A stretch of 32,840 nucleotides of DNA. Origin: Sphacelaria rigidula (taxonomy: Eukaryota). A program made the translations under genes and the position numbers. This document shows positions 5,752 to 31,411 of the stretch, in pieces. The notes below the pieces were generated by a model. It saw only the letters and a program-made list of their open reading frames with translations. It had not been told where the DNA came from and did not search any database. The stretch lies in assembly GCA_964200075.2 (NCBI GenBank), contig CAXNAA020000036.1:1-32840 (forward strand), read 5' to 3'. Position 1 is the first letter of the stretch. The number at the start of each line of letters is the position of its first letter.

Positions 5752-7196
5752 TCTTTGCAAAGTTCAGAAGTAGACTCGTAAACACAAATTTTGGTTCGTC
5801 GTACGTCACTAGCAGTGAAAAGCACCTGCGTCGTGCAGGCGTTCGTTGCTCAAGAGCAGGTGCTATACACTGGTCATTTTCATTCTTAATTGATGAATAC
5901 CGAGGACCTTGGTACTAATATACTCATATTCTTCCGTTTGCGTCGTAACTTGCCGTTGCTACCCGTCAAAACACACACCTGCAAGTACCAGAGATATGAG
6001 TGATAATAAAGTTATACGACATTCCGTTATTAGCCGTCGAAGAAGGACTCCGTGCATTACAGTATCGCAACGAAAAAAGGCACTCTGAAACTCTTCTCCA
6101 CCCCACCCTGATACTCACGATCCACATCGAACCACCACGAGGCAAAACCGCAAAATATAGCCGGACTGCTGGCACATCCGAAGGCATGAAAAACGAAAAC
6201 AAACACGACACTTCAAGAAACGAAACGTTAATCGACGCCACCAGAAGAGCACGTCCTTTTGACAACTTCTAGCAACAGGAACGCGGCGAGAGTCTAGTAC
6301 ACGGAACCCCAAAAGGAAAGGAGTAAACGTTATTTCGCGGCGCAAGTAATCGCTTTCATGCCGTCAGGCCTTTCCCTAAATGAACAGACTGGTTTAACAA
6401 AAGTAATGTAAAGAAATTCGCCATGTACGGATTGTTTCGGGCCTACAGGTCCACCACTGTGAACACTGAACGTGAAAATCCCTCGGGTAACGCGCCTGAG
6501 ATGGGCAGTTGAAGGAGCGGTCAAAAGGTGTCACTGCTGCTGACCCCGCATTCCTCACTCAACTATTAGAACAATCCCCAGTTTGGCCAACGGCACGCAC
6601 TATCGTATCGCTGCGATGCAGTCATCACTCGAGCTGCTCCTCCCAACGTCGTACTCATACACCTCCCGGGCGACTTCGTCCGGGAGAAGCCCGAAACCAA
6701 GAAGAACCGGTGGGGTGAGGTAAGAGGGCAGGCACCACAGTCCCGCACCTACACGCCCTCCATTGAATACTAACGCATTATAAGCCACGACTTAACCATT
6801 ATTGTTGCCACTGAAAACTGGAGGTTTACAATCACGGTCTCGTGCACCATCCACTGCATCTTTTGACTAGGGGGTGGGTCGAGGCAAACAGCCGCAGCTG
6901 GCTCCGCTTTTGGTTCCCCCGCAAATGGAAACTTACGTCACACGCAAAAACCCACACACATGCACAACCGTCTACCTTCCCTCTGCAGTAAGCTATATCT
7001 CCAATCTCGATACCTACAACTCTGTATTGCGGTGCAAAGCGCCAAGCAGATCGTTCAACCGCGACAACCCGGTGGGGAGTGGTCGCATAGATACGACGGG
7101 GATTGTAGAAAGTGCGCACACGCTAAATACCTACTGAAGTACGCCACAGGATCGGAGTGTCTCGGGATGGCAGGCGATTCGGCCGTGTTCAGGTCC

Positions 7197-7431
7197 TCAA
7201 AAAACGGGGTCAGTAAAATTCCCGTAGATTCTCGCAATAGCTTGCTCTTTAAGGCGCTTGATTCCCTCGGGTCCAAGGAGAGGCTGGTCAGGTGCAACGA
7301 AGCCCTTCTCGGCTGCTACAGCGGCATTTTCTTGCTCGGCATCGATACCCTCCAAGGCTGCCTCTTCTTGCTCCTCCAGCGGGATGTGTTCGAAGTCCCC
7401 GGCTGCCGCTGCTGTGAGCGGGGGAAGATCG
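7197..7431 (-). CDS. Terminal exon: acidic/Ala-rich C-terminal tail
   Basis: The TTGCAG acceptor phase matches the GTACGT donor at 8251. Encodes SDLPPLTAAAAGDFEHIPLEEQEEAALEG...FTDPVF*. Confidence 0.72.
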
Positions 7432-10400
7432 CTGCAACGGTTACGTGGCAAGGGACGGCGCGGGGGCAGGGTGTGTGCTCATGATCTTGTATGGCGTAGT
7501 CATATGACCACTGACCTCGCATTCATACCAAACGAGGGCGGAGCACGTCGAGTTTTCGCCGGACCAGGCTCGCAATCACCAAGTTTGAAGCGTCGTGATG
7601 TGCTCGGCTAGTCGCATGAAGAATGAGCTGCATCCTGCCAAGATTGTTCGGCCCGAATCGTACCCATCATCTTGCATATGGATGATAGCCTACAAAACAA
7701 GGGGAACCTAGTTGCGTAGCTTATGCAGTGAGTGCGTGCTTTACGACGCCGTTACCAACCGACGCCAACTCTTTTGGGGGGTAGGGGAGGGGCGTTGGGA
7801 TGGGAGGGTATCACGGAGCTATATGTGTGTGTCTTTGCAATGGAGTCAGAGTGAATGAGAGGTTCGGTCGGATTGGCCGCTGGTAGCTTCAGCTACGACA
7901 CGGATTCTGAATTCGGTGAAGGCGGAGGACCGTTGTGCAACGGGGCGGAAACTCTCATCGGGGAAAAGACTCTGGCAGTGCTTGAAGCGTAGGCGCACAA
8001 GCCCCCAAATCATGTCATCTCGACACTTGACACGAGGCAGCCAACCCGCTACGCAACACACGGTGCAGAGCCCTGAAACCCGCCGGCCATGAAGAAAACG
8101 AAGGATGTAGCCAATGCCTCACACCGCCTTCAGGCATTCCCACCCGAACGAATCATCGCGGCTAGGCCATACCTCTCACCGAGATCAAACATACGTATCC
8201 AACGCGGTACGATTCCTCCAGTAGATGATCAGCTACAGAAAATTCACGTACCTCACGGTAGGCTTGGGCGCAGGGGAGGGTGGTGTTCCGCTGGTGAAGT
8301 AGTAGGTAGTGTCCGAGCCGTAGGTTTCTGTTTTATAGGGGGTCAGGCTTCCCAGGAGCACCTGCGAGCACACAGGTATTTTTTGTGGAAGTTATCCGCC
8401 GCGAGAAAGTAGCGGCGGAAACGATGGGAATGGGGTTGGATTGGCCCAAACAGACGGACCAGCAGTTGTTCCGTGGGATGGTTCAAAAAGGCACTGCCAT
8501 GTACACCAAGGTAGTTGGTCCAGGTTAAATATACATTTTACAAACAGGTGAGACCAGGGCGTGGGGCAGCACTGACACGAATAAAACAAGTGAAAAATGA
8601 GAATCTAGGGCCAAGAAAACAACCTCGAAAGAATATACGGTAGGGGTGCACTCTGGTTTTCTGGGGTTATGCACTGAAGGAGCCTTTATCTCTCCTGCGA
8701 CAGACTGCGAATACATGAAACTTGTGTGAGAAGCAGACTCACGCTGGCAGCATCGGCCGTGGGCACAGTGACCGGGATCACACCCGCGCCGCCGGTGGAA
8801 TCCAGACTCATGCCCAGGATACTACCAGTAGCGGCGTCTTTGGTAGCCGTTACAGTAGGGCTGTCAGCGTCCAAAGCTTCGTGCTCTTGGAAGTTCGCAC
8901 ACAGGTCGTCGAACTTGACGGACTGCACATTTGGCGACGTCGGGGGGCAAGGCGAGGTTGGTGCTTTGGACGTTGGGCGGTGGAGATTGTCACCTTCATG
9001 ATGCTGATTGTATCTTGGGCATTACCGTGTCCTCTGAACGGCATTGGAGGCATCCTACGATAGGGGGGGGGAGGTATTTCGGGCTATTTCTTGCACGAAA
9101 TTCCAGGTCAAATCGTCCTAGAAAGCAGCAAGGGTTGCTCGAACAAGCTTGTTATAGATACGTGACGCTCATTCATGCCGATTGACATCGTTTTGAACCA
9201 AATACAAGCGCACCGCGAGTGTGGCAGGTCGTCTGACACACTTATAAGCCTTCACGTGCAATCAAATACCCCCACCCTATCGTAGGATGACTCATTGGTA
9301 CCACTGAATGAACCCTTCGAGCATCGTGTACAGGCGAGAGCGTAGTTGCCAGCGATGAACCCTAAGGGGCAACGAATTACGTTTCACAACAGCAAATCTC
9401 TCTAGACGCACTATTGCTACTGGACGTCTGAGCGTTTTCCTCAAGTCCAAACGATTACTTTGGTGTGTCGGAAAATGCGCCATACCTTGACGGGGAAGGT
9501 GATGAAGCTGGACAGGGTGGCCATGACATCTACGTACCACTTCTCCAGAGCGGACATGCCGCCCAGGTCGGCAGCCGGAATGATGTTGGCCTGGTGGAAC
9601 ATGTACTTGTCCCTGTTTTCGGCGAAAGCACGAAATTGTGTAGAGCAGGGATCGAGCGAGACTGAGCGGAGCGGAGCAAGCGGCGCGTCAACGTCATTTT
9701 TGCGGGGTGGCCAAGTACCATCCCAACTACTAGGACCATATTTGATCATCGGGCTGTCGCACACGGGCTAGTACTTATTGCAGAGTCTGCCATCGAAAAA
9801 TTGAACCGCATGTCCTCGTGCACCTGCGGCCCATAAGCATGTAGCGCGTAGTGGTCTCCGCCTCGGCCTTGTAAATGGCGTCGATTGAACCGAAGGACGC
9901 GATGTCATCATTGCTGTTGCAGCCGTACTCGGAGCCGACGTTCAAGCACGTCTGCTCAATGGTGTGCGACGGGCAACAAAACATAGAGCGAGGGGAACAG
10001 ACGCGAGGTCACCGACCAGCGCTTGCCCCGTTAATGCCGGGAATGGCTTCGATGACGAAGCTGACCCCGTCGACGCGTAGTTACATACGGAAAGAAACAC
10101 ATTTCGGGAACGCAACCAGAAACATTTGCCCCAGCATGATTCCTCACCCCACGGTCCGGTATGGTGGGATCCGGCTCCGAGCAGTTGCAGGTGAGGCGCC
10201 TGATGTATTCGTTTTCGTCCACGAGGCACTAGAATTTCTCGGACGACCAACAACCAAAGTGAAAACAAAAGATGGACGACGAGGACGACGACATTGACGT
10301 CAACCGGAAACATCAGGGTCAGGGAACAGAACGGACAATGGCTGACAAACAGGGATGTAGCCGTTGAAAGCGAAGAACTATGCTCGATGCTTGTGATGGG

Positions 10401-13400
10401 CAGAAGTCGCCCACAATGAGCCAGGCTGACAAATATCGCCCATACTTCCATCACTGCAAACCGTATCTGGATGGCGACACGATAGTCTGGCTTCACTCGA
10501 CTCCCAACATCCTCTCACCTGGCCGGTGACGCAGTTGTAGTAGACGAAGGTGGCGTAACGGGGCACGATCTGCATACCGGCGTGTCCTGGTGTGAGTGAT
10601 GATATCAATATGCCCGGCGGCAAGAGTTCGAAACAGGATAGGCATCAGCTCGAATCGATGCACGATTTGTCTCCTTGATCCACCATCACCTCAAAACAAA
10701 GGACACCCCATCGCTCCTCTCCCCCCCTCATCGAATGCCGGATATCACATATTGTCAACCGTTGTTATCCGTCTTGCGCCAACCAACAAGAACATACAGG
10801 AGGAAAAAGCGCAGCCATCTCCATCGTACTCCGTGACCCAATATCTTGACCATCCGTTAGCGAATGCTCACCGTTAGTGGCCACGGTGGAGTAGATGGAG
10901 TGGTACTCGTTGTCCTGGTTGACAAGAACCGGGTGCGTGTTGTCACCGGGATAGCAAGTCATAAGGTTGGCCTCGCCGGACATGAGACAGTTGGCGTTGA
11001 AGAGACCGGTGATACCCGGCGAAACCATACTGCGCCAGTTGTAAGTGTCCATGTCGAACATACCCGAATACACCGCGATCCGCACGTTGGCTGCGTTTTG
11101 GGGGGGGCGTTGGTGGTTGAACACAAGATAAATGGGTAGAGCGAGAGCGCGTCCGGGGAGGCGTGGTAGGGGGCAGGAATACAACAGACACGTTTCAGGT
11201 GCACGTTCACAAGTTTACTCAAAAACTCAACTTTCGAACCCTGGGTCAAGCTAGCAATACCCACCTTTCGAAATCGTATAAGTAGTAGCTAGATAACTGA
11301 CCACGGTATATGAAGTCGACAATATAGAAATTTACTTCAAGGTTGGAGTCATGCTACGATAGGGGGGCAGGGGGTATTTTGGGCCGTTTTCTTCCACGAA
11401 ATTTCACTTCAACCGTCGTTGAAAGCAGCAAACAGTTGTTCGAACGCGCTTGCTCCCGATATAGAACGCCCATTTCTACTGCGTTGCGCCGCATCTACCC
11501 AAATACAAGCGCAGCACCAGTGATGAGGGGCAGGGATAGATTATGACTGACCAAATGACCCAAAAAATAGGAGCACCAAGCTGGCACAAAAGGTTGGGCA
11601 ATAAGTTGGCCAAGCTTTCGGCAACGATGGTCTACTCGGACGTATTAATGGGGTAGTTACCCATGGTGGAACGTCAACAGAATGTACGTCAAAATCCAAT
11701 GTGCGAAACTTCGTGTTATGCACCCCGTCCTCGAACCTTGCACGGTAAATATGACCTCACTGGAAAAAATTAACCGGCACAGCCGGGAGGAGAGAAATGG
11801 GATGGGGTCACGGAACGCCTCGATTATTACTATGCAGATCGCATGGCACCAGCGCGGGGTAGTTGTAAAACACTCGATTACTTCCCACGAACAAAAAATG
11901 CTGGAAAGAAAGGCGGTAGGGTAGGATCGATGGAAAAGGAACTATTAGACGGGTAAAGTGGTGGTACTGCGGGCATTTGGAGTCCCTCGAGATATGGCGA
12001 TAATAAACTTCAAGAGGAAATGCGAAGTCGGACAGTACGTTTGGGGACCAGGAAAGGTAGAAAGGGAGCGATACAGGAGGGAACTGGGGACACCTCCAAC
12101 ATTCTGGCGCTCATTACGGGAGGGGGGGGGTAGGGAGGGGCGCACTCAATCATCAAGCGCGAAGCGCCGTGGTGTGTTCGGCGAGTCGCATGAAGGGTGA
12201 GCTGCACCCTGCTAAGATTGATCGGCCCCAAGCCTACTGATTGTCTTGTATTTGGATGACAGCCTACAATGGGGTGCTCTATTTTCTGGCATCGCCACAT
12301 CCTGAGACAGCCACGGCTTATACTCCACCTCATAGGTGCCTCACCAGTGAAACACCAAGTGGTGCAAACATCCACACTGTGCGGAGTTGAGGTTCGCCCA
12401 CGCCGCACAACATGATCTAGCTCGACCACCATTATGGTGACCGCAAAAAAAACCAAGCGCTCAAAAGAAAAACGGTAACCTGGTTGCCTAGCTTCCGTAG
12501 TGAGTGGCGTGTTTTATGGCGTCATCGCCAACAAACGCCAACCCCATCGGGGTCCGCCCCTACAAAGCCGGGACAGAGCACGCCGAGTTTTCGACGGACC
12601 AGGTGGAGAGGGGGGGGATCTGCCCGAAAGAAGAGTTACACCCGTAGTCGGGTGGAGAAAAGAGATACCAGAATATCCGTTAAGGCAAGGTAACAGAGTA
12701 GATCTCGTAGAGTGGGAAGATATATACATATATACTATACAAGGGCGGAAGTGACGTGTGTGACCAGGAGATGGGGAAACTAAACGATGACATGAAATCG
12801 TTTGGTACATGAGATAGCGAGAGAGGGATGTATGGTCGTTGGTCGATTGTGTTGAACCGAGCAATAAATGAGTACGCCACCCCTCCTCCCGCCCCCGCTA
12901 CGCCGCTCGCTCCCAACTCTCGAATGCCCCATGCAACAGCGTACACACCTCCGTCCTCGGCATTGCAGTCTGACACTTGGAGCTCGTCGCGAGAAAGGTG
13001 TGTGAGGGTATGGCTGCCAATAAAGCCATCGTTGGGGTTAGCTAGTACCGCCTGGAGCAGAGCGTCACTGTTCCATCCGCCGCTGGCCGCCTCGGCTTCC
13101 ATGAGGGGTACGGTAAGGCTCATGTAGTCCGGGGGAATAACAGTGTCCTGTAGGCCTGGAAATTGTGAGGGGAGGGGGGGGGGGGGCATGCGTGATACTT
13201 TTGAATGTGCCTGGAGTGTGATGGAACATACGTCATGATGTCCCGTACTTCAGTACACTGTAAAATGGTTGTGCGGCCGGTCAGTCATGATAGTCGCTCT
13301 GCTTGCTTTGTGAGTGGGTATCGTTTGGGTTCTTGAACCAATGCAGTCGCGCACCTGAAACTATCACGTGGGATGACTGATGGCAGCGGTCACTTTGATG

Positions 13401-16400
13401 CACCGGGAGGGTGTTTAAACAGAAGTACTCCATTGCTCGAGGCAACTAAAAATGGGGTTGGGGAGGGGAGAGAGAGAGGGAACACTGGTAGCGTATCGAA
13501 ATAACCTATTAGCAATCCCCCGTCATGACTTCGCACTCAGGATACCGCACACGAAGCCAAGTCATTGGGACAGATCGCGGCACCATCAGACACCAATAAA
13601 ACAGTGAAAGGTGGGTAACGGACGGGCGGAAATCCGGAGAGATTTCTCACGTTACAAACAAAGCCAAGTTCGCGAAACACTCCCTCATCGTAACACCGAA
13701 CTACGTGCGCAGGATGGACTCCGCGGAAACCCGAGTATATATAGCGAGCGTGGCTGGCCACACACTCAAACTCACCAGGAGGTGTCATCTTTGTCCCCTT
13801 GACCGTGACCATCGTATCCTTGTACGGAGGTACGTGCTGAGAACCAACCTATACGTCGAAGCACGCGGTCGCATGGGGGCGGTGGACTAGGTTTATGAGA
13901 TACATCGCTGTGTACACACTGGCATGCTGATTTTGTCGGGGCTGCGGGCGCAATATTTGGAGGGCACGATGGTAGTGGCCAGGATTAGAGCCGCACAATC
14001 TCGGCAAACACAATGCCGCAGTGCCTGCCGGCCACGGTGGTGTGGGTATTATCGCCCACGATACAACGACCCTACGCTCGCGCCGTGTCACCTTTTGACT
14101 CAGGTGGGAAACGGAAACCACGGCCCACGTCCACTGAAGCAACGGCGAGAACATGGTCGAACGCTTCACATTCCGACGGAGAGTACATAACATCTCCTTA
14201 AAACGAACATCCCTTGAAGGTACACCCGGGCACCCGCCCCCTTTCCCACCCCTCCTGACCTCAACATGAGCAACGAAGAAAGAAGTACACGTCCTGTAGC
14301 TCAGTTAAGACATTTGAACTCCACCGCATGGACTTTGAAGTGAATTCATCAACAGCCTACGCCTGAAAGACGTCACCCAAGCGGAAAAGTACTCGCTGGA
14401 TCTTTACCCGCAGCGACGTCTTCATGCTCTCTACAGTGGGGGAGCCCCGTGTACTGTGAAGGTCCGCTGTCAAATTTTATGTGTATGGTACAATCATGCT
14501 CACATGTTGAAGGATACCAGCCCCGTTGAAGGCGTACTCCGTAATGATTTCGGACGAATACTGGGTGTTCAGATCATTCTGCACGTCGATGATCTGCTCG
14601 TAGTCTGCAGCGGAACATCTGTATGCCTGTATTAATCAAAGCGCGAGTTCCACACCGGCAAGTCGCAAAACGAGTGGGACAGAGGCGAGAATGCACAATG
14701 CGGAGGTCAGGTGATCGGAGATCGAGCTTGAAAAAGCATGAACATCAAGTGACTGATATTCGAGTAGGCGGGGGCAAAGGCGTGACATACCCAAATACTT
14801 CGCGACTTCAGGGGTGACATGAACGAGAGTATCCCCCTGTAGCTCAGTTTTCATCTACGGAAAAGCGGGGGGGGCGCGGTGTGCCTTCACTTCCCCCCCA
14901 TTAGGATCTACGATAGGACGTAAACAGGTTTGAAAGGCGCAACCCGAAGGAAAACGGGAACGGGAGATTGCAAGGTACGATTATAAGGGTTGGCGACAAC
15001 GAACCATTCACTTACTGTGCCCTCGTTCAACGAGTCATCATATTTGAATTCGTTGGTAGCGAGGAACAGGTCATCAACCGTTGCTCCCAGGTAGAAACGG
15101 CGCTCTCCCTACCGTCGACGCCAAGCCCGAACAGAAAAAGGTACAGGCGAGGTCGGGTAAGAAGGGGGGCGGGAGGGGGGGGGGAGTCAGTGCTCATATC
15201 ATGCGTATACTTCGACCAAAAGCAAAAGTGTCTTGTACGAGAGAGTAGAGAAAAAAAATGGAAATAATTGGCTTTCACTGTGAATTGTGAACATCCGTGT
15301 ACTGTTGTTACACCAGGACATGTTGACGTCACTCCCGAGAAGCCGGTACGGAGCGTTTTCGAAATCTACCACGGAATGACCCCCATTCCAACAGCTCAAG
15401 CGGAGGAGAATGTTGCCGCATCTCACCAGAAAGACTCCCTTCGTAGCCCACTCCACGATGTGGTGCGCCCATGCCCACGAACCCAAGTCGAACCACCCGA
15501 TAGAGAAGAACACGTGCAGCTCTTCGAGACCTGAGGTGGCATTCTTGTACTCCATCATGGCCGCGCTGGGAAAACCGTCGCTTGTAATCGGTGTTCCGGA
15601 TGCATCACGGTACCTTGTGCATGACACGATACAAGGACCGGCAAAGGAAGGAGGAGCAAGAAATGTGGTCAGGTTTCACATCACTTAGCTTGGTCCTTTT
15701 CTTCCTTGCTCAAGCCCCGAAATGTCAACGTGACCCATAGCTTTCCGAGCCGTGTTAGCAAACCTCTCGTTGCCTCAAGATACAAATCAAGCACGGTCTA
15801 CTATTGCTATGATGTGTTGTAGATGACAAGACGGCGACTTCGTCTGGTTTCTGGAAACTGGATCGCCCGACGGCACGCAAAAGAGCCCACGAAGGAACCT
15901 GAAATCCTCTATTGCGAGCGTGCCGTCGGCCGTCGCTGGAGGTCCGATTTATTTCTACCGTACGAGTTGGCACAGGAGGGGGGTGACAAAAAAGATAGCA
16001 TATTATCATGCAAAACAGCTAAAACATGGCCATCGGATACCGCATCGAGGACATGAATATTTGTCGTCGACTAGACCGCCACTGTGAATCATTGCCAGCG
16101 GTGGCCGTCTGATCCATCACGGTCGCTATGACAAATTGTCCTGAAACTGATGCAACATGGTCGATCCAACTGCAGGGAGAAATTCATTGGACCCATGTAG
16201 TTTCCAGACCCCTCATTCCTCACCCACCGAGTTTTTGTGGAGGCGTGCTTGAAGTCATCCTACGATGGGGAGGGGGGGGGATATCTCGGGCCACTTCTTC
16301 CAAACGAAATTCCAAGTCAAATCGTCGCTGAAAGCAGTCACAGCAAGTATATGACGCTCATCCATGCCGCATGTCATCGTTGATAGAACTGGCTTTTTTT

Positions 16401-19400
16401 CGTGCAATCAAATATCCCCCCACCCCCCCCATCGTAGGACGACTCTTCGGCTGTAGCGATTTCTCAAACGAGCACGATCAAGTTCGACAGTCCGGGCATG
16501 CCTTTAGCAATTGTACGAGGAATGCCGATGTACAAAATACTTTCAAAACACCCCGAAATAAACAAACCATAATAATATTTTCGTAGCACAGGAAGCGGCC
16601 TGAGTGGTCAGCCATAATGATATTTAGGCGTCACAAATCATATCTCCCCTTTACAGCAACACGGACCAACCATGAGCTACCAAATATGCCATTAATGGAA
16701 TGCTTTCAACAGTTCTCGTGTGCTTAGTCTACGCGTAGTAGGACCGGTCGATTCATCCTCTGCCTTCGCAGGATACAAGCCAACGGCCGGCAGCCGCGAC
16801 TTGCTTCTGTACTCACTCGGCGATAGGTGTGGTACCGGGAGTAGCTTCGATGATGCGGATAGCTTGGGTAGCGAGACGGTTTGCAGTAGGGTCGGTTTGC
16901 AGGCCAGAGTTAACTATCCTCGCCCCAGCAGCACCCGCAGCTGTTTGAGAAGCGCGTGAAGAGAGAATCCGATGGCACCAATGCGTCAAAACATAGGCCA
17001 CACGAAAAGTACATGGACACAGATAAGAACGCGTATGGAGAATGCTACACCGCACCGGTGGGGACGCTCTGTACGTGACACACGATGACTCACTTCAGAC
17101 GATCACACGGATATTGGGGACACCTAGGGGTTGTGGAATCCCCGCCCAGGCAAAAGCTTGGAACAGCAATATGTGCGAGGATGACGCGAAGTAAGCAATA
17201 GCAACAAAAAAAACGAAACGATGACAACATTTTCAATCCTGTTTTCAAAAGAATTGAGAACCTCCTTCATTTCAGCAGGGGCACAAGTTCCACTCACAGG
17301 TTAGCCCGATAGCGGGCGGCAACAACAAGTCTCCTGCCCAGTGCGCCTGAACGCCGAGCTTAGCTGTGAAGTCAGGATGCACGGACGTGCCAGAAACGTC
17401 GAAATACACAATACGAGCCTTGAACGTGGCGGAGTACTCGGACAAAGCGGCAAACTGGGCGTCAGACGCTGGCAATCCCACGTACACGGCGTTGCACTTT
17501 CCATGCTCGGGGTCAATCGTCAGCTCCGCCAGAAGGTCGGTCTCCGCGGATGCAACAATGATGATCTGCATTCGTAGTTCACGACAATGATGATAACAAA
17601 TCTTTGAGCGCTAGGCAGGAGCAGTTCCTGATTGCAGGGGGGGCTTACTGCATGGAGGTCACGAGCGCGGTGCAGCACTCGAAGCCGTACAAAACAGGAT
17701 GCCGTTCAAATGCATCCATAGAGTCGATTGACGGCGCAACCGTGCTCGGCTTAGCATGGATCAAATTTTGAGCACAGTTACGCGCCACGGGAAGATAAAA
17801 GTTCACGCCGAACAGGCAGCAGGTCGGGTTTCAGCTGGCCTGTGCCCTTGGTATCGGGTTGGCGTGACCGAGTGCCCCTTCGACCGAACGAAAATAAGAG
17901 TTCAATAGCCCCTCATGGACAGTTGTGGAGTGTCGTAACACGCTTGGTACACTCCGCACCTCCGCCCTACCGATCGGAAGCAGACGAACTGCTGATATGG
18001 ATTACAGTCCATGAGCTTACGAACGAAGAGTCATGTCTGCTGGTCATCTCACCGACACGGAAGTCGAACACTCGACAAGGGAAAAATACACTACCGACGG
18101 TAAAGAAGGACACTCGTCGCATGAGCAGGCCTGGATTCGCAGTGTAGGTTTTACCCAAGTCAGACGCGACCCCACGAGCAATACGCGATATGGTACGAGG
18201 AACGTATTCAAAGCACTCGAGAGCAGACCTGCCATGATCGTGTGCTTACCGGACCGCCCGACCAGTATCCCTTGTAGAAGATCTCCATCATGTACGGACC
18301 CGCGGTAGCCTCGGTCTGACGGGTTGCAAAGTGCATGGATTGGGGTCAACACGTCAGTCAAGAGAACGGAAATGCCTGAAGCACGGTGCCATTTTGGAAA
18401 CGGCCGCCCCAATACAGACTGAAGATAAAAGCTGCACAATTCTCTCGCGTGTCGTTGCTACTAGCATGAGGCAATAACTTCACGTCATCGGCTCAAAAAT
18501 CGCGCATTCTCTCTACATGACATAACTGCAGCACGAGCGGGTAAACCTTGCAAGTAAGAGTATGCGTTCTTCGCTATTTCACTCCCTATATTCACTTACG
18601 ATTGCCGCAGGGGTGAGGATGCAGGGTAGCAGGTCCACATACACGATGTCGGGCGGGATGGGAGAGGGGGGCGGAGAAGAAGACGGGGGCGGGGTAACTG
18701 GTGGGGTAGATGTGCCATTGGACATGTCGGGCAGGGAGGGGCGGGGGCGAGGGCAGGGACGAAGGAAATGTAAGACTGTAGAACTCTTGAAACTGCAAGT
18801 GGGAGTGCGCCGTACTCACACGAAACAAGATGACCTCGTTGTGCATCATGTGTGCGTCTTGCCAGTCCATCTATTCTGAACCGTCCATGGTACACTTTAC
18901 GGTATTTGTGGTTGCACCAGCCGGGGTCACATAGGAGGAACGCTAACACAGGATTTGTTTACCCTATCTTTTGTTCTAATATTTCACCCTTCCTAGTATT
19001 TCGCCTTCTGCAATAGTTGACTTCTTCTCTATCGCGAGAGGAATTCGGTGGCTCTTTTTTCTCGTCCCCCGTGACGATTTTTGTGCACCCACGACATAGT
19101 CGCGCTCTACCGCTGTGCGAAATGTGAGAAAAATCCTAGATCGAGTGACTCTCACCGAGATTCGACACCACGTCCCAAGCGTCAGAATGTTCCGAGGTTA
19201 CCAACTGAGCCACTGGGGGAAATTTGGCTTCATAAAAAGAACGAGATACCCTTCGCTCGATGAGCAGTATTAGGGCCGTTATTGTTTTCCCGTTGTTGTC
19301 GATTGTCAGTTTTACCTTCGATGCTGTAGATGTTCATCGCGTTGATGCCGCCGCAGATGACGTTAGCGTCACCGGAACAAGCCCTGTTGCAACCAGTAGA

Positions 19401-22400
19401 CCGGCCGTACTTGTCGATGTCGCTCGAGGCAGGTCCACACCAGCACTGCAGAAGTAGGACGTCGTGGATGGGGCAAATGCAAGCAACCCATCCAAAGAAG
19501 TAGAAAACAGCACAGTAGACCCGCCTTGAACAACTTAGCTTGAACCTTCGTGGACTACTCTCGGCTATAGTTGATTAATTGATTGATTGATTGTCGCACT
19601 TTGACTGACCCCCCAGCGGTCCAGCCGTGGTCTCATGATAGGCTGTTGTGCTCGCCCTGAAGTGAGGCACGCCATGAGTAGCTAGTAACGAGAGCATAAA
19701 GCGCCGTGGCATGAACGAAAAAGCTGACGACAGGGAGTGTGCAACCCCAACTTGAAGCGCCCTCGAACCCTACGCGACTACGCGTGCAGTCTGCTGAGAG
19801 ATGCTCACTATTAATAGCAAAGCTATGAAGCGCAGACCAGAAAACGGCATAGGGAAAAACGAGCGCTTTTGCTATCGGAAGGAAGCACAGTCTGCCAAAT
19901 TGTGAGGAAATCGAGGCAAGAAACAAAAGACGACGCGCCACTCCCACAGCGCGCTATCGCACCTCGTTCCCGTACTGCACGCCGGAGTACGTGTTGGTAG
20001 AGTCATCCGCGCAGAGAGCCTTGCAGCTCTATCATACGTGGCCGATAACGGAAACGCGGGCAAGAAAAAGAACGCATTGTCAGAAGGCGAAGCACCGCGG
20101 TAATATGGACTGTTGAGCATACACGGTGCCGGTGTTTCTTCGGAACGCCGCGCCTCCTGCGTCGACACCGTAACGAAATTAGTTGCGGTCATGGCGCAGA
20201 TTTGCAGTCCTAACTCCCGCGAGGCGGCGGTCGAGAAATGCGGTCAAGTCTCGAGGCCATTCTAATACCCTGCACTATACTACCGTACCCCGCCCCCTCC
20301 CTCCCCTCACAGGGGTTGGCGTCGGTTGGCAATAGCGCTGTAAAAACGTCATTCCTTGCGTGACCAGGTTACTGGTTCAACTTTGCGCTTCTTTTGTTCG
20401 CGCTTGCGTGTTTCTTGCGGTAACCGTGACGGTGGCCAAACTACATCGTATTGTGCCGGGTGGGAAAACTTCGATTTAGCGCTATGGGGATAAATATCCT
20501 ACGTGGTGTTTCATAATTAGACCCCCTTGAGGCGGTGTGTAATCCGTGGCTGCCTCTGGAACTTGCATTGTAGGAATCCAAATGCAAGACGACCAGTGCG
20601 CTTCGGGTTGAACAATGTTGGTAAGATGCAGCGTACCCTTATGCGATTCGTCTAACACATCACGGTGCTTTGCGCATGGGGATTGATTACAAGCCTGGTC
20701 CGGCGTGCTCCGCCCCGACTTTGCAGGGATGCGAATTCACCCATCTTATGACTAATGTGTACACCCCCCTCCCCCCTCCCCCTTTTCCACTTCTCGACGT
20801 TGTTCTGGGCTAGATATCATCACTGGTTTTTCCATGTAGAATTCTGCTTGGGGGTTTCAGAGCTACCTTTCTTTCGAGCTACGAGTGTATTTCTCAGCGC
20901 ACGCAGCGCCCCCGTATGCACTTCCTCAAACAATATTCCATACAAACGCAACAAGGTCGGAACATGACACTGCGTCATCGACCCACCCTCGCTGTTACGG
21001 TATGAATGTAGAAGGTATCACGGACTATGTTGCCGCGTACGCCCCACACTCGTGCATCGAACCCTTCCCACTTGTGTCGACATTGAGATGCTCAGTACCG
21101 ACAGGGTGAACTTTCCTCGCCCCCGTCCTCCATGCTTGCTATCTACCCACAATTACCGCCAACCGAGCATCGAACTGAAACCTGCATGACTGGTCACCGT
21201 TGCCAACAGCGGCCCCGCACAACCCTCTTATTCCCCACTAATCGCACACGTACCTCTGGGGTCATATCGGGGATACCCTTGGTGGATTGGGGGAAAATTC
21301 GGTCAACCTGGACGTCTGCGTAGCAATCACCGTCGATAAAGGTGTTGCTAGGGCCGGGACTGGGTGGCGGGGCTGGGGCAGGAATGGTCCGTGGAGAATA
21401 TCGCAAAAGAGCGGACGGGAACCAGCATCGGCGGCGGGGGGGGGAGGGAGGGCGTTCATCCCATATACGTCACTGCGATACAAAATGTGGAAGTTGACGA
21501 CACGCCGTCCGGGGAACGAATCATTTTGAATCATTTTTCAGAAGAAGCGATCGTCCGCGACCAGCCACTGTACTCCTGTGTTCTTCGATGAACAGAGGAT
21601 CAGAGCCATATCTATTCTACGCAGTTCTTAGCCGGCAAGCTAGCGACTACACAGTCGCTGGTGCAAACATTCCTGCCTAGTCGATGATTGGAAGGGAACT
21701 GGGCATGCTCATTGCTTTTGATATATGCTCCGAACCTCACTCCGTGGAATCCTACGGAGCGTTCTTTTTTCTACAGCAGGATGATTGGAGACGGCCGACA
21801 TTGTCATGGCTATTTCGTGAAACGTATTCTCCATTGTACCATAATTCGGATCTAGGGAGACCAACGGGGATTATCATTCACAAGCTCGACTCAACAGTGG
21901 GACTACTGAAATCGAAGGATATTGCTTCCGACCAAACCGAGATAAACAGACGGTGAGCGTATTCGATGACCCAGTGGATGAGGAAACGCTCGCATCATGA
22001 TTCACGGCAACTTACAGTCCATGTTGTAGATGTTCATGGCGTTGCTGCCACCGCAGATTTCATTAGCATTTCCGCTGCAAGGCATGGTACACGCGGCCGA
22101 CAGTCCGTGTTGAGAGATGTCGCTCGAGTCTGGTCCACACCAGCACTGCAATACAGAGAACGATGGACAATATTTCACGGCACAAGTCAACGAGACGATA
22201 GAGGCACTCATGTAGTTTGTAGAGGAGCGAGATAGAATCTACGCTGCGGGAGTAAATTAGATTCAGCGGTGCACACCACTGTCAGGTAATGGCCCAACCT
22301 AGATGATACGCGGCAAATATTAATTAATATAAATTGCATGACAACAACTCTTTTTGTTGTCCTTTTCCGGGGGGTAGCGTGCTCCACAAGACAAGTATCA

Positions 22401-24570
22401 AGTACGGTTAAATTAAGTCGCTCATGACAAAACACACATGTAGGTATGTTTACATATATACATACGAACGTTTGATGAGAGATGTGTCGGTTCAAGACTT
22501 CAAGAGTCTTAAACCGTCACAGGGAGGAGGCTGACCAGATTTTGTCATGAAAATTGTCCTATCGGGTAATTGCCTTGTCTGACCACTTAAATGCCACAGC
22601 AACGTGGGTAGGGATACCATTGTAACACCAACACAGCGCATCATTTTCTAGCGATACTACGCTGAAGAACAGTGCGACTGCTGCTGCTCCAAGGAATGTC
22701 TCCTACCTCCTTGCTGTACTGCACGCCGTAGAAGGCGTTGGTTGGGTCGGCCTCGCAAATGGTCTTGCAGCTCTGTTGAAATCCGAACAGCGGTCATCCC
22801 CACCGCGGAAATAGGCGAACGGGGTGAGTGGCACAACACGAATAAACGGGAAAAATGACGGCGGGGATATAACCAAAAGCTTCACACGGCAAGACATAGC
22901 AGCACTAAGGGCGTCCACTCGCGCGTGGGGCTTGAAAGGGAGCGGAGGTACACCGACACAGACAAGGATATTTTTCACGTAAAGCCCACTTGCATTGCTG
23001 AACATTTCACGGTGGCGAATGAACGATACCGAACACTTCTGAATTGGAATTTCACCGCAAACGTCAAACAGCAATACTCCCGCAATAACTGTTTCAGTGA
23101 TCAAATCAGGTATATGGAACAACTCAACATACTTCTCATTCTTGTTTGCCCATTTCATGACTTCAAGAGATTCGTGGTTTCATCGAAGGCCAATGCGTCA
23201 AGGGCAAACTGGCTCCATTAACATGTACGTGGCGGTCATTTCCAATCTTCCTCCCTTCCATTTCCCACCCTACATACCGCAATGGTCAGACCGCCGACGT
23301 TGTTGTTGGCATCGGGAAGGATGCGGGCGTTTTGTTTGTCGGCGTAGCATACACCATCGCCAGATGGAGGTTCCATGGGAGGGGGCGTTGGTGTTGGCCC
23401 CGATCCGCCGGTGGTGTATTCGAAAACCTGCACCAGTTATGAATGTTTTGATTTATTTCCAGGGAGTCGTAGAGTCAGCATCTGTGGTGTATCTCAGCAA
23501 GGTATCGTAATACCGCATGGCTTACTACTTCGAGCTGGGCATCATCAGCAGCCCAGATAGTACAACCTCTGCGTTCTTTAGTCTATGCGTATCGCATCGA
23601 AAATAGACTTCATTTTCTCCTCAACACTTGCAAGTCCGCGACTCCCACGGGATACCCACCTCAAAGTGGGTCAAAATCATATTTCATTTCGTGCGAGTTA
23701 TAGTTCTCACCTGTATGGCGTTGGATCCACCGCAGTCTTCCGCAGGGGAGCCCGTGCAGGCCTTGGTGCAGCTGGATTGAGGAAGGCTGCCCAACCCGGC
23801 GTAGTCCGCCCCTGGGACACCGCACCAGCATTCCGAGCCGTACTGCAGTCCGAAGTACTGATACGTACCTTGTGCGTTGCAGAAATCAAAGCAAAACTGT
23901 CCAACGGAGAGAAGAGAGGGAGGTGTGACGGGATTGCGAAAATATCCAACCACCCAGTTTGACAATATGGGGTGTGGTTTGACACCATTAACACCCAAGA
24001 CTAATGCTACGATAGCCCCTCCCCCCCCCCCCCTCCCCCGAAACAAAATGCGGCTGGTTAAGGGAGGCGAAGTCTAGACGTGAATCGAAATGACAAAAGC
24101 CGAGAACAACGAGCAGCTTGGAATTCCCACGCTTAGGATCGTTTTCGCCAATGTTGCCCCGATGAGGCGCTCCATACGACCTGACACCAAGCATCATGCG
24201 CTGTGTAGTCACTTTCTTCGTGACACGTTTGGGCTGATTTTTTGGGGGGTTATCATAGGATTAGTCTCAAGGATGCGGTTCCGTCCTCCGTTTCCGGAGA
24301 CGGTAACTCCCGAAGATGGGTACTCCGTTACCCGTAGTTGTCGAACAGCCCACGTCGGGTATGGGGGAATGCATCGTTTTGAAGGTTGTCTTCCTCTGCC
24401 CACCACGAGCTACATTTGTGGGGAAATGATATTTCAATCCTTGTAGCCAGACACGTGGATGTTATGTTCACCTGCCGATTATTGTCGGGGCTGCCCTTAA
24501 TTCCCAGCTCGAAGCGGCGAGCGCTTTGTGAGTCTGCGTAACATCCCAAATCCGTTGAGTCGGTTGCTGC
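7197..24570 (-). CDS. Multi-exon gene: 3x WSC domain + Agd3-like (CE18) polysaccharide deacetylase, probably secreted; 5' end uncertain
   Basis: Hand-spliced exons (plus-strand coordinates, in gene order): 24472-24570, 23711-23896, 23278-23427, 22707-22772, 22016-22145, 21254-21372, 19963-20028, 19316-19445, 18600-18697, 18250-18315, 17298-17565, 16817-16940, 15427-15613, 15016-15108, 14504-14626, 13776-13848, 12949-13155, 10872-11090, 10519-10586, 10148-10228, 9824-9951, 9486-9612, 8743-8922, 8252-8361, 7197-7431. All introns are GT-AG and all phases match. Total 3333 nt, open to the TGA at 7197-7199. Start not resolved: there is an in-frame ATG at 24672, or a further upstream exon may exist. 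Confidence 0.88.
7497..7770 (+). repeat. Intronic dispersed repeat, family B copy A (internally deleted)
   Basis: Shares GAGCACG.CGAGTTTTCG.CGGACCAGG, AGTCGCATGAAG..TGAGCTGCA.CCTGC.AAGATTG and CCAAC..ACGCCAAC with the copies at 12147-12603 and 20312-20754. Confidence 0.8.
8252..15108 (-). CDS. Agd3/CE18-like deacetylase catalytic domain and C-terminal beta region
   Basis: Motifs in order: GERRFYLGATVDDLFL (DD); EYAFNGAG; SHTLTH (HxxxH); SPGITGLFN..GDNT.P; NGHAGMQIVPRYATFVYYNC (Arg); RYMLMGRRDKYMFHQAN (His); FPVKSVKFDDL; ETYGSD. The order matches Aspergillus Agd3. Confidence 0.85.
9047..9293. mobile_element. MITE, same family as 1018-1209, full length, intronic
   Basis: GAGGCATCCTACGATAGGG...CCCTATCGTAGGATGACTC, with TSD ATTG at 9043-9046 and 9294-9297. 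Confidence 0.9.
11346..11549. mobile_element. MITE, same family as 1018-1209, right end degenerate, intronic
   Basis: GAGTCATGCTACGATAGGGGG..GGTATTTTGGGCC..CGTCGTTGAAAGCAGCAA..GTTGTTCGAAC..CCAAATACAAGCGCA. Confidence 0.8.
12147..12603 (+). repeat. Intronic dispersed repeat, family B copy B (segment order permuted)
   Basis: The body matches 7570-7770 and the reverse complement of 20312-20690. The 'head' segment lies at 12558-12603, after the tail. Confidence 0.78.
15427..18697 (-). CDS. Pro/Ser linker + N-terminal (CBM87-like) region of the Agd3-like module
   Basis: Exons encode VYVDLLPCILTP..EIFYKGY..IIIV..QFAALSEYSATFKARIVYFDV..GLEELHVFFS..HHIVEWATKGVFL. This resembles the region preceding the Agd3 catalytic domain (..Y...F.VR.V..DV; E.M..F; H....W.T.G.Y). 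The similarity is recalled, not computed. Confidence 0.7.
16252..16445. mobile_element. MITE, same family as 1018-1209, internally deleted, intronic
   Basis: AAGTCATCCTACGATGGGG...CCCCATCGTAGGACGACTC. No clean TSD. Confidence 0.85.
19316..21372 (-). CDS. Pro-rich linker + WSC domain 3 (exons 21254-21372, 19963-20028, 19316-19445)
   Basis: GDCYADVQVDRIF...MTPE|SCKALCADDSTNTYSGVQYGNE|CWCGPASS...CNRACSGDANVICGGINAMNIY. Confidence 0.93.
20312..20754 (-). repeat. Intronic dispersed repeat, family B copy C (inverted)
   Basis: The reverse complement reads TAGTCATAAGA..TCGCATCCCTGCAAAGTCGGGGCGGAGCACGCCGGACCAGG...GCCAACCGACGCCAACCCC. Confidence 0.78.
22016..23427 (-). CDS. Pro-rich linker + WSC domain 2 (exons 23278-23427, 22707-22772, 22016-22145)
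   Basis: GVCYADKQNARIL...LTIA|SCKTICEADPTNAFYGVQYSKE|CWCGPDSS...CTMPCSGNANEICGGSNAMNIY. Confidence 0.93.
23463..23590 (+). pseudogene. Inverted, degenerate WSC N-terminal coding segment inside intron 23428-23710
   Basis: Plus-strand translation ..YLSKVS*YRMAYYFELGIISSPDSTTSAFFSLC aligns without gaps to WSC1 DLGCYADSQSARRFELGIKGSPDNNRQFCFDFC. The 12-mer CTTCGAGCTGGG is identical. It is preceded by the acceptor-like TTTTGATTTATTTCCAG. Confidence 0.55.
23711..24570 (-). CDS. WSC domain 1 (exons 24472-24570, 23711-23896)
   Basis: DLGCYADSQSARRF...NNRQ|FCFDFCNAQGTYQYFGLQYGSECWCG...CTKACTGSPAEDCGGSNAIQ shows the canonical 8-Cys WSC pattern. Confidence 0.93.
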
Positions 24571-25817: not shown

Positions 25818-25995
25818 TCACAACCTACAGCCTTCCTGAATATCCCAGAGAACCCGTGTGAAAAATTTCAGGATTCCACTTGAAACAATGGTGTGAAGGA
25901 TCGCTGTGGAACAAATTCCAGTCTCTCACCCTGAGCTAGCCTGTATGATTGTCATTAGTGTTAGTGTTGTAATGCCTCGGAGGACGGCGCGCTTA

Positions 25996-29300: not shown

Positions 29301-31411
29301 CTATGCCTTGGTCAGGATCAGGGTTGGCATCTCATCTATCCTATCAACAATTGTTTCCGACTATTTCGTAATCAGCCGTCGACGCGAAACCCGAGCTTGG
29401 TGCCGAGAAATGTACTTACATAAACTACCTCTTCTGCGGAGAGTTTCCCTTTCTGCTCATCGCGCATCATGGCTAATATGGACAATTCTCCGACGATCTC
29501 TGAGAGGACAACAAGGAGAACCAGTCAAAGTAAAGTCAACAACCATGTAATTTTACCTCCCCAACTGCACTCTCGCAAAACCAGTCTCAATTTTTTGTAG
29601 TAAAATCACGTTCAATGTTTTGTGCCCTGTTGTTCGTCGCCACCTCCCCACAGGATATCAGCCCCGCACACGAGCACTGCACAGCATGTTGTACCACTCT
29701 ACGCTCAATGTTTTCTCACCGTCTGAAGCAACCGCCCTGGCGCAAAATGTGCTCCCCTCATGCTGCGGCCCGTCACTGCATCACATGTACATATTGACGC
29801 TGAAGCCGTCGCGAATGCGACTGCTGTGTGCCGTCCCCACCTCATGGCTTCTATGAACCGCAAACAACCAAGACTCCCTGTCTGCCTCCCGTAGCTTGGA
29901 AGGGGGGAGCTGCTTGTAGTGTGACACGAAGATAGTGTGATGAGAAATTAGGCTGTTCTCGTGACACCAGTTGATGCAAGCGTGTGCCTGGCGCGCGTTG
30001 AAATCACGAGGCGCGAAGTGGTGCAGTGAACGGGGGTGCGGAGGTGCACGCGGAAATGAGATGAAGGTTTGGATCTTTCCGAATAGAACTCCAGACTCCG
30101 GGATTCCACATCCATCACCGAGGAAAACTCTCGGATTCTCAACACGTTCGAATGGGCGAGGATGGGAGAACCCAGAGCCCAGAGCGGAGTATTTATGTGC
30201 ATCTGGCCTGCAGGAGCATGATCGATGATCAACCGAGCGATGTCTCGACAATTGCGGACATACACACAGCATTGACACCCAAGGCATAATGCCTACACAT
30301 CCATAGATTGGCTGAGGCTGGAACTTTAACCCTCAGACCGCGAGGTTAGTCTTCTGTTAAATCGGCATCAATTTCAAGTGAAAAAACATATGCATGATCC
30401 AGAAAGACTAATCTCGCGGTCTAAGGGTTACGATGTGGTGGTTCAGTCGAATGCGCTTGGTTCTTAGGAATCCGTGCCGGGCGTGTATCAAAGGACGTGT
30501 TGTGCGAACATTTAACGAACGTCGTGAGGTATACCAGCCCCGACGTGCACAGTTTTTCTCCTCTCAGGAGGAGTCGGCTTGACGGAGATACTGGAGACAA
30601 CCGCCAAAACTGAGTGACAAATACAAGTACTTGTTTTTGTTGAACCGAAAGTCTACCTCTTTTACGCTCACGCGTCTGGAATCCAGATAACAGGTTCCTG
30701 GATAGCCCGTGCTGCGGTAAATGCAGCAATACTGGTCTATCGCAGCTCACTTGTCGACAGATGCGTGTGTCGCATTTGCAGCGGTCAGCACCGCGATGAC
30801 GTTTTTACGGTGCAGGGTGATCGACATCGGTTTTCGGATTGCGGCACGTACGTGTCGTTACTGTGTCGGCTGTTTTCGATTATCAAGTTTTTCAGAGTCA
30901 AGCTGTATTGACTACTCGTAGGTAGTGCCGACGCTGTCTAGAACTTAGATAAGTCTTGAGATAACTCCTGCTGTTGTTACTTCAGCGACACCAGCCTGTG
31001 CCTGCTACGCTGTCTACATACACATGCATGCATGTGTTCCATTCGCAGTGATCAGCATCTGTGGCGTTTTTGCGTTGCGGGGTGATAACAGTGTGTCAGG
31101 TCACGCTTGATTTCTCCGCAAAGACAGAACATGTGGGGATCCAGATGGATCCGTGCACAGCTCCTCCCGCTATCGGGAAGGTGGCGACATCACTCCGTCT
31201 CGGAAACACTTTTTATAGACGTGTGTGTCCCGGCTGAGTAGTCAACGCAGACGGTTATTCGGGGTCGCGGGGTGACTCGAGATGGTCCGGGCTGGCACGC
31301 AACATGTCAGCTGTGCTTGGCCGTCGAGTGCGCGTTCGAGAGCATCGCGATATCCGGCACGGACAGCAAAAATGATTCCGAGATAAGATTTTGTCCACAG
31401 CGACCAACAAT

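Follow-up and report, generated by a model that had tools for sequence, protein, structure and literature searches.

A multi-intron gene of the brown alga Sphacelaria rigidula that joins three WSC domains to an Agd3/CE18-type deacetylase module

The closest described relative of the protein reported here is Agd3 of Aspergillus fumigatus, a deacetylase of family CE18. Families CE18, CE21 (PelA), and CE26 (PelA-DA) are described as acting on the alpha-1,4-linked N-acetylgalactosamine (GalNAc) polymers of biofilms (PMC13254593). Bacterial operons with CE18 and GH114 genes are described by Bamford 2020 (PMC7229062), where D377, D378, H510, H514, R613, M666, and H668 of Agd3 are each reported as needed for activity. 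Analysis of a 32,840-nucleotide (nt) stretch of the Sphacelaria rigidula genome (contig CAXNAA020000036.1; here called the window) revealed a gene of 25 exons on the minus strand, running from 24570 down to 7197, that encodes three WSC domains followed by a CE18-type module. It is one nuclear, spliceosomal gene of this brown alga. An initial annotation, made from the sequence letters, had drawn 25 phase-consistent exons over the same span and a product of about 1110 amino acids (aa). The same model was recovered by homologue-guided spliced alignment, with a spliced frame of 1114 aa, and the proposed fusion of three WSC domains with an Agd3/CE18-type module proved to be intact, with one open frame and agreeing domain matches. 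Judged from its sequence, this combination is a new architecture of a known kind of enzyme.

The Sphacelaria protein and its gene

The deduced protein consists, in order, of three WSC domains, a Pro-rich linker (aa 316-332), an Agd3-type module (aa 333-1030) with a CBM87-like domain, a CE18 catalytic domain, and a C-terminal beta domain, and an acidic tail (last 78 aa, 16 D+E versus 5 K+R). A WSC hidden Markov model (HMM), built from three homologue WSC segments of which two were matched by Pfam over nearly the whole model, placed the WSC domains at aa 8-90, 122-200, and 227-305, with aligned Cys columns and E-values of 5e-20 to 7e-23 each. Pfam WSC (PF01822) matched raw open reading frame (ORF) pieces in three places, twice with the E-values given in Table 1 (exons 2 and 5) and once with 9e-5, a value under the cut-off because the scanned piece comprised the final exon alone. 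At the DNA level, the two terminal exons of WSC2 share 75-77% identity with those of WSC3 at a spacing of ~2.7 kb and the introns are dissimilar, which points to an old internal tandem duplication of a three-exon block of ~2.7 kb as the probable source of the two domains.

Searching Pfam with P0001, a 463-aa "unnamed protein product" of S. rigidula that is 99% identical to the exon query of the gene, revealed Agd3_CE (PF25115) with 137 bits against a cut-off of 27.6 (E 1e-39; profile positions 135-363 of 366). Seven homologues matched the same family with E-values of 1e-36 to 5e-46, those of full length (1e-38 to 5e-46) covering profile positions 2-363, and the raw ORF containing exon 18 alone gave 42 bits. 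P0001 aligned to the Agd3 crystal sequence (Protein Data Bank [PDB] entry 6nwz) with an E-value of 1e-25. Sixteen brown-algal and related proteins were combined in a profile, which aligned to the same chain with 1.2e-48 over positions 97-661, a span that takes in the barrel, the C-terminal domain, and the greater part of the CBM87 domain; the CBM87-like region forms the first stretch of this alignment (chain 97-242). A PDB search with exon 14 alone, a short query of 31 aa, gave no match.

A structural model was generated with AlphaFold2 for the Pylaiella homologue P0026, which is 52% identical to the Sphacelaria protein over 706 aligned residues (64-row alignment; mean predicted local distance difference test score, 89.8; predicted template modelling score, 0.90). 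Comparison of this model with the PDB by Foldseek revealed Agd3 (6nwz_A) as the best match, with an E-value of 9e-41 and a template modelling (TM) score of 0.81 over the 665-residue chain. The N-deacetylase part of human NDST1 was second (E 6e-14, TM about 0.45) and PelA third (E 6e-7). The first third of the CBM87 domain was alignable by fold only. Profile alignment and the P0026 fold together recovered the three-domain CE18 architecture of CBM87, barrel, and beta-rich C-terminal domain, and the assignment to Agd3/CE18, for which HMM and structural comparison had been suggested as checks, was borne out by both.

All of the motifs that the initial annotation had read in the sequence were located in the spliced protein, in the order VDD (aa 574), HTLTH (712), PRY (814), YYNC (821), and YMFHQAN (901). 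The seven functionally tested Agd3 residues align to D575, D576, H712, H716, R815, M902, and H904 in HMMER alignments and a pairwise map, D575/D576 being matched to D377/D378 through the homologue P0032. All seven are kept, and the equation of these motifs with the catalytic and metal-binding motifs of Agd3 therefore stands. The CE18 signature is complete and comprises the CM1 Asp-Asp pair (base and metal ligand), the CM2 HxxxH motif, the CM3 Arg, and the CM4 Met-x-His motif. In an alignment of 64 diverse members, 20 of them from the brown-algal/viral clade, the R815 column is invariant and the other six columns are at least 90% conserved. The protein is very probably an active CE18 enzyme; a catalytically dead, lectin-like wall protein is hardly credible, since all catalytic and metal-binding residues are kept at this level of conservation.

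The exon model was built with our own protein-to-genome spliced aligner with exact handling of split codons, using the Scytosiphon (P0005) and Pylaiella (P0032) homologues as queries. The exons of WSC2 and WSC3 were placed with the gene's own WSC2 as the query, the homologues having fewer or garbled WSC domains. The coding sequence (CDS) comprises 3345 nt (1114 codons plus the stop) and 0 internal stops, and the other two frames of the spliced CDS contain 25 and 34 stops. All 25 acceptors are AG (CAG in 20) and all 24 donors are GT, with the donor consensus CAG/GTGAGT; the introns are 196 to 1858 nt long (median, 561 nt). The GC content of the CDS is 58%, and that of third positions is 69%. 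The single ambiguous acceptor, that of exon 6, was fixed by requiring an open frame; an alternative acceptor at 21315 also leaves the frame open but removes the start of WSC3, and it was rejected. Contamination or a viral insert as the source of the gene was rejected because of the 24 spliceosomal introns of normal consensus and the relatives in eight named brown-algal genera.

Transcript contigs of four runs (X1 to X4) were compared with the model. Of the words sampled from the stretch, 10-15% occur in the runs, the share expected from exons alone, and the segments spliced out of the contigs have CT..AC ends when read on the plus strand, corresponding to GT..AG on the strand of the gene. The comparison covered 15 of 52 joints plus a small share of the contig pieces, and absence of cover was not taken as evidence. 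Direct support was obtained for 11 of the 24 introns, 8 by listed joints (7431/8252, 8361/8743, 8922/9486, 9612/9824, 9951/10148, 10228/10519, 10586/10872, and 15108/15427) and 3, those between exons 2-3, 11-12, and 12-13, by adjoining pieces of single contigs. Three further introns are consistent by length, the 164 nt between exon 11 and exon 8 in X3 record 16 being equal to exons 9 plus 10. Starting with 37 nt of exon 14, which encodes the catalytic Asp pair, this record continues through exons 13 and 11 into exon 8, where WSC3 ends; the WSC and deacetylase parts therefore lie in one transcript contig, as the proposed fusion demands. An X1 contig with a depth of 78.5 bears the exon 13/14 joint and matches record 5 (exon 11 plus 730 nt more on the WSC side), and in each of the four runs the contig depth of the bin 24352-24985 amounts to ~100 covered nt, in agreement with the acceptor at 24570. 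The junctions that had been put forward for checking against RNA were thus seen spliced as predicted for 11 introns, and exons 15-17 were left unbridged among the joints listed. An X3 contig that joins 13775 (exon 16 end) to exon 17 carries 12 divergent letters and is probably the transcript of a paralogue spliced at the same place. At the other end of the gene, X1 record 1 carries 1096 nt further 3' beyond 6600.

In the public gene model, P0001, translation begins at an internal Met of exon 16, and neither the WSC domains nor the CBM87-like domain, the catalytic Asp pair, or half of the catalytic barrel are included. The model is a truncation, and the public annotation of the S. rigidula locus is truncated, as shown by the spliced model. 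If the locus held two genes as annotated, an upstream WSC protein and a separate 463-aa deacetylase fragment, this would agree with P0001 being the sole Sphacelaria product found for this contig, with a search by exon 11 that matched 3 proteins, none of them a Sphacelaria protein covering this exon, and with the unbridged exons 15-17. This explanation is very improbable, since the fragment would be left without the CM1 Asp pair and half the barrel, contigs join WSC3 to exons 13-14, 11 of 49 relatives fuse WSC and Agd3_CE, and the frame is open across all 25 exons.

Exon 1 contains no Met, and transcript contigs extend ~300-420 nt further 5' in sequence not placed with certainty. The homologue N-termini read M-x-R, a hydrophobic stretch, R-K/L-L-Q-T, and TDLGC shortly before the first WSC Cys, and are signal-peptide-like. 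An upstream exon would thus carry the start codon and a signal peptide. The candidate 29845-29720 reads M-R-W-G-R-H, a hydrophobic stretch, and ...G-R-L-L-Q-T, and it implies a first intron of 5149 nt and a precursor of 1156 aa; a spliced aligner supplied with the N-termini of three homologues did not choose it. Scans for Met plus a hydrophobic stretch plus a phase-0 GT donor gave several weak upstream candidates, and a pattern search upstream for a basic pair plus L-Q gave no match. Another first-exon candidate, 24767-24696, was rejected because the contig depth in that bin permits only ~100 covered nt. The highest 19-residue Kyte-Doolittle mean of the 1114-aa protein is 1.49, and no transmembrane-like stretch is present. 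The protein would be a soluble extracellular enzyme, its secretion being suggested by the homologues' N-termini.

Relatives in eukaryotes, bacteria, and giant viruses

Searching with a single exon revealed 49 proteins at E <= 0.001 among 54 candidates. The 31 with a source name are all from brown algae (Sphacelaria, Scytosiphon, several Ectocarpus, Pylaiella, Hapterophycus, Choristocarpus, Discosporangium, and the JGI set Undpi1, which we take to be Undaria). The CE18 gene is therefore not a singleton and belongs to a multi-copy family across brown algae, in which 11 of the 49 relatives carry WSC and Agd3_CE in one protein. A profile search of 1.84 billion representatives gave 1204 proteins at E <= 0.001, 642 at 1e-10, and 138 at 1e-30. 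Thirty of these matches were looked up, and 14 carried an organism name: one brown alga, the ascomycete Rhexocercosporidium, the green alga Monoraphidium, the ichthyosporean Abeoforma, a marine-protist transcript cluster, and 9 chytrid proteins (Phlyctochytrium, Cladochytrium, Nowakowskiella, Gaertneriomyces, Physocladia, Chytridium, and one Chytridiales isolate). Two chytrid proteins, P0054 (2398 aa) and P0055 (1926 aa), contain three and two tandem CE18 modules per chain, respectively. In prokaryote genomes, 7 loci with 25-33% identity were detected by a pattern scan, most of them in Bdellovibrionales-type metagenome-assembled genomes (MAGs). Profile positions ~348-400 are lacking in bacterial-type members, which match in three stretches, and are kept in fungal, green-algal, and brown-algal ones; this segment may be a marker of the eukaryote-type group.

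The family had been characterized in the initial annotation as described from fungi and bacteria. This is true of the literature (Bamford 2020) and does not hold for the databases, which contain Monoraphidium, Abeoforma, brown-algal, and giant-virus-like members, so that CE18 is spread among eukaryotes and giant viruses much more widely than was visible to the family's founding paper. The further remark that no characterized algal CE18 is known agrees with the literature searched, in which no paper on an algal CE18/Agd3 was found, the supplementary CAZyme tables of two brown-algal genome papers lying outside this search.

Phylogenetic analysis started from 198 sequences, of which 128 cores covered profile positions 270-680; removal of 5 near-copies left 123 rows (FastTree). 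A second tree was calculated from 58 hand-picked rows (IQ-TREE quick search, LG+C20). Both trees have SH-aLRT support only, their root is not known, and most rows are without an organism name. In both, the brown-algal sequences form one clade (support, 100) on a stem of 1.4-1.7 changes per site. The clade is nested in a larger group, to which all of the named fungi and the green alga also belong and whose support is 99 in the 58-row tree and 61 in the 123-row tree. The bacterial ORFs L001-L003 form a clade of their own outside the eukaryote-type group, and the bacterial L005 is placed close to the drawn root, its branch being very long. A bacterial donor for brown-algal CE18 is not indicated by these trees because the brown-algal clade groups with chytrids, the ascomycete, and the green alga and not with bacteria; the suggestion that the gene was an old horizontal acquisition found no support, the clade not standing among the bacterial sequences of the 58-row tree. 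The Sphacelaria protein belongs to a subclade of 11-14 rows (support, 99-100) composed of Ectocarpales plus Sphacelaria, into which all WSC plus Agd3_CE proteins placed in the trees fall.

Two members inside the brown-algal clade, P0039 and P0045, are encoded by uninterrupted ORFs on contigs with 39% GC. Their neighbours include a poxvirus-type VLTF3 (E 2e-52), a D5-type primase-helicase, a hybrid histidine kinase, and an MT-A70/SWIB protein. IMG/VR holds three loci with a CE18 gene (L013-L015), and two of the three contigs are equal in size to the metagenome contigs. In a 37-row tree, five viral sequences form one clade (support, 100) that is one of six lineages at the unresolved brown-algal base. 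Exchange of the CE18 gene between brown algae and giant viruses, in either direction, appears likely because virus-like contigs carry members of the brown-algal clade.

Substrate and proposed function

Descriptions of the brown-algal wall name alginate, fucans, and cellulose as its components. A multi-copy, apparently active family of GalNAc-polymer deacetylases does not fit this picture, especially together with the amplification of GH114. GH114 is listed among the four most populated brown-algal glycoside hydrolase families, with ~5 genes per genome, by Mazeas et al. 2024 (PMC11468063), who note an alpha-1,4-galactosaminidase activity for it, citing Ega3. It is also reported among the markedly amplified families, and WSC orthogroups are reported as expanded, in a brown-algal genome study (bioRxiv 10.1101/2024.02.19.579948). 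"CE18" and "deacetylase" are absent from the main texts of these two papers. A protein of Scytosiphon promiscuus, P0029 (1298 aa), combines two N-terminal GH114-associated domains (PF14741, E 2e-21) with Agd3_CE and has no WSC domain. A search for shorter proteins with the GH114-associated part of P0029 gave only one uninformative match of 54 aa. P0033, of the same subfamily, shows a weak LNR/Notch match. In a Bacteriovoracaceae MAG, L001:1914-8725 (+) holds, in order, a PelF-like glycosyltransferase (DUF3492 plus GT1), a 568-aa ORF without a family, CE18, and GH114 with its associated domain. At the bacterial locus L005, a PelB-like gene with tetratricopeptide repeats (TPR) and a beta-barrel adjoins the CE18 gene.

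We propose, with a probability of roughly 0.7, that the gene encodes a wall-tethered, Agd3-type deacetylase acting on the alga's own alpha-1,4-GalNAc-rich glycan. A signal peptide, as suggested by the homologues, would direct the protein outside the cell, where the three WSC domains would hold it in the wall and the Pro-rich linker would be extensin-like. By analogy with Agd3, a divalent metal bound by D576, H712, and H716 would activate water, D575, positioned by R815, would act as the base, and H904 would act as the acid. The acetyl group would be removed from an N-acetyl-hexosamine of a polymer lying in the cleft between the CBM87-like domain and the (beta/alpha)-barrel of the CE domain. 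The substrate may be an alpha-1,4-GalNAc-rich glycan of the extracellular matrix, similar to galactosaminogalactan (GAG) or Pel; deacetylation would make it cationic, and the amplified GH114 family could then trim it. A GalNAc-type polymer is favored because of the GH114 amplification, the P0029 fusion, the bacterial CE18-GH114 gene order, and the substrates of CE21 and CE26. Such a substrate is given slightly less than an even chance; if it is of this kind, an endogenous polymer seems marginally preferable to a microbial one.

Several points weigh against this proposal. No paper on a galactosamine (GalN) or GalNAc polymer in brown-algal walls was found by title and abstract. In the window, the arrangement of a deacetylase beside synthase or hydrolase genes, typical of a GAG cluster, was not found, and tblastn with bacterial queries (the PelF-like glycosyltransferase, its neighbour, and GH114) gave E-values all above 0.8, which is a weak test. 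The long stem of the brown-algal clade leaves room for a change of substrate, and NDST1 as the second fold match means that the fold serves other N-acetylhexosamine polymers too. The fold was modelled for P0026 and not for the Sphacelaria protein itself. The start codon and signal peptide would lie in an exon for which a candidate is at hand, the transcript contigs come from four runs of one study that are only presumed to be RNA, and no contig bridging exons 15-17 is present among the joints and pieces listed.

The same enzyme might instead be directed against foreign polymers, bacterial Pel or fungal galactosaminogalactan on the thallus, and prepare them for cutting by GH114 as part of an antifouling or defence pair. 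GH114 enzymes cut deacetylated polymer, and Ega3 is presented as biofilm-disrupting in a title cited in PMC11468063; the biofilm origin of the CE18, CE21, and CE26 substrates (PMC13254593), the multi-copy nature of the family, and the missing report of a brown-algal GalN polymer in the literature searched point the same way. In all characterized systems, as far as the sources cited describe them, the deacetylase serves the producer's own polymer. The appended modules also fit proteins of the alga's own wall: WSC and extensin-like linker modules are typical of proteins acting on it. We consider a role against foreign polymers improbable.

Equally improbable is recruitment of the fold for another substrate, such as O-acetyl groups on fucans or alginate, or glycans with N-acetylglucosamine (GlcNAc; chitin oligomers or N-glycans). 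Brown-algal fucoidans can be O-acetylated, and the long stem of the clade and the match to NDST1, which acts on a GlcNAc polymer, agree with such a change. Against it, the seven Agd3 active-site residues are kept with nearly identical flanking motifs (SHTxTH and YMFHQAN), one CE18 subfamily carries GH114-associated domains, and GH114 is co-amplified.

That an own-glycan deacetylase of this type belongs to a full cationic Pel/GAG-like system for handling alpha-1,4-GalNAc/GalN, with CE18 enzymes tethered by WSC or GH114-associated domains, an amplified GH114 family, and a CE18 gene moved to or from giant viruses, is a doubtful extension. If it were true, brown algae would possess either an unrecognized amino-sugar component of their matrix or a dedicated anti-biofilm system, with a bearing on wall chemistry, adhesion, and the control of surface microbes by seaweeds. 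The Sphacelaria enzyme offers an assayable entry point, with one enzyme, seven mutable residues, and defined oligosaccharide substrates.

Features of the window and comparison with described systems

The coordinates of the gene and of other features are listed in Table 1. Apart from the gene, a retrotransposon fragment was the sole coding feature recognized in the window. Two of the gene's introns each contain one copy of a 128-nt repeat, where contig depth climbs into the thousands and tens of thousands and numerous chimeric joints connect the copies; the repeat is abundant and transcribed elsewhere in the genome. An Rfam scan of the whole 32,840-nt window, this repeat included, gave 0 matches. 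The hairpin-like repeat at 25448-25823 is located within the first intron as proposed here, and the contig depth in that region may be due to it.

Table 1. Coordinates of features in the window, and of two viral CE18 genes on other contigs
Feature	Position	Strand	Content and evidence
Whole coding span	7197..24570	-	spliced alignment; 25 exons, 1114 aa
Candidate first coding exon	29720..29845	-	42 codons, phase 0, donor GTGAGA; collinear with homologue N-termini; inferred only
Exon 1	24472..24570	-	aa 1-33, start of WSC1; AG/GT; no Met
Exon 2	23711..23896	-	rest of WSC1; contig pieces 23709-23896 in 4/4 runs; Pfam WSC E 6e-11 (raw ORF)
Exon 3	23278..23427	-	short Pro-rich spacer, WSC2 start; X4 record 23 runs 23709-23896 straight into 23305-23425
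Exon 4	22707..22772	-	middle of WSC2; spliced alignment; 77% identical to exon 7
Exon 5	22016..22145	-	end of WSC2; contig pieces X2, X3, X4; Pfam WSC E 7e-7
Exon 6	21254..21372	-	start of WSC3; one of two frame-keeping AG acceptors
Exon 7	19963..20028	-	middle of WSC3; found by aligning WSC2 to 19200-21700
Exon 8	19316..19445	-	end of WSC3; X3 record 16 piece 19316-19443; 75% identical to exon 5
Exon 9	18600..18697	-	Pro-rich linker, start of Agd3-like module; spliced alignment and length fit
Exon 10	18250..18315	-	spliced alignment; with exon 9, 164-nt gap in X3 record 16
Exon 11	17298..17565	-	CBM87-like domain; contig pieces in 4/4 runs
Exon 12	16817..16940	-	X4 record 21 piece 16815-16940, contiguous with exons 11 and 13
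Exon 13	15427..15613	-	contig pieces X2, X3, X4
Exon 14	15016..15108	-	CM1; D575 15073-15075, D576 15070-15072; joint 15107/15426 in 4/4 runs
Exon 15	14492..14626	-	spliced alignment; no joint among those listed
Exon 16	13776..13848	-	spliced alignment; P0001 begins at internal Met here
Exon 17	12949..13155	-	CM2; H712 13010-13012, H716 12998-13000; P0001 aligned to 6nwz
Exon 18	10872..11090	-	joint 10585/10871 in 4/4 runs; Pfam Agd3_CE E 7e-11 (raw ORF)
Exon 19	10519..10586	-	CM3; R815 10558-10560; joints on both sides in 4/4 runs
Exon 20	10148..10228	-	joints 10228/10519 and 9951/10148 in 4/4 runs
Exon 21	9824..9951	-	joints in 4/4 runs
Exon 22	9486..9612	-	CM4; M902 9600-9602, H904 9594-9596; joints 9611/9823 (4 runs), 8922/9486 (2 runs)
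Exon 23	8743..8922	-	CE domain end, C-terminal beta domain; joints in X1, X2
Exon 24	8252..8361	-	joints 8358/8740 (2 runs), 7431/8252 (3 runs)
Exon 25, coding part	7197..7431	-	acidic tail; stop 7197-7199; C-terminus same as P0001
3' untranslated region	6600..7196	-	X1 record 1: positions 1097-1928 cover 6600-7431
CBM87-like domain, introns included	15436..18647	-	aa ~333-560; profile vs 6nwz and fold of P0026
CE18 catalytic domain, introns included	8857..15435	-	aa ~561-962; Pfam PF25115 and PDB 6nwz
Intronic repeat, 128 nt	7568..7695 and 12142..12269	.	copies 80% identical; in two introns
Long terminal repeat retrotransposon pol fragment	1-3530	+	RNase H-like reverse transcriptase domain E 1e-11; integrase core E 2e-6 (under cut-off)
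Assembly gap	1124-1133		10 N
Hairpin-like inverted repeat, resembling a miniature inverted-repeat transposable element (MITE)	25448-25823		164-nt arms, 87%
Hairpin-like inverted repeat, MITE-like	31431-31771		100-nt arms, 90%
Viral CE18 gene	L009:9824-12370	+	uninterrupted, 39% GC contig
Viral CE18 gene	L011:9965-12256	+	uninterrupted, 39% GC contig

Comparison with described systems places the protein at different distances. NDST1 is similar by fold only, with no sequence match; it is fused to a sulfotransferase, resides in the Golgi, and acts on a GlcNAc polymer. The Ega3/GH114 endo-alpha-1,4-galactosaminidases, the functional partners of Agd3 in fungi and in the bacterial operons described, are not homologous to the algal protein. 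The WSC part resembles brown-algal and fungal WSC proteins (PF01822) in its Cys-rich domain with conserved spacing, present in three copies, and differs from them in its fusion to CE18. Brown-algal WSC domains are also found fused to mannuronan C5-epimerases. PelA (CE21) and the PelA-DA of Bacillus cereus (CE26) are described as metal-dependent de-N-acetylases of alpha-1,4-GalNAc polymers with a base-coordinating Arg late in the sequence (PMC13254593). They belong to different CAZy families, and PDB sequence searches with the brown-algal sequences and their profile gave no Pel enzyme. In contrast to Agd3, with which it shares about 20% identity in the fold alignment, the algal protein carries three additional WSC domains, a Pro-rich linker, and an acidic tail; its gene has 24 or more introns, belongs to a separate long-stemmed lineage, and is not surrounded by a GAG cluster (uge3, gtb3, agd3, ega3, and sph3) in the 32.8-kb window, a weak test. 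Like A. fumigatus Agd3 (CE18, CBM87; PDB entry 6NWZ), it has the three-domain module, motifs CM1 to CM4, the Asp base, and the Asp-His-His triad.

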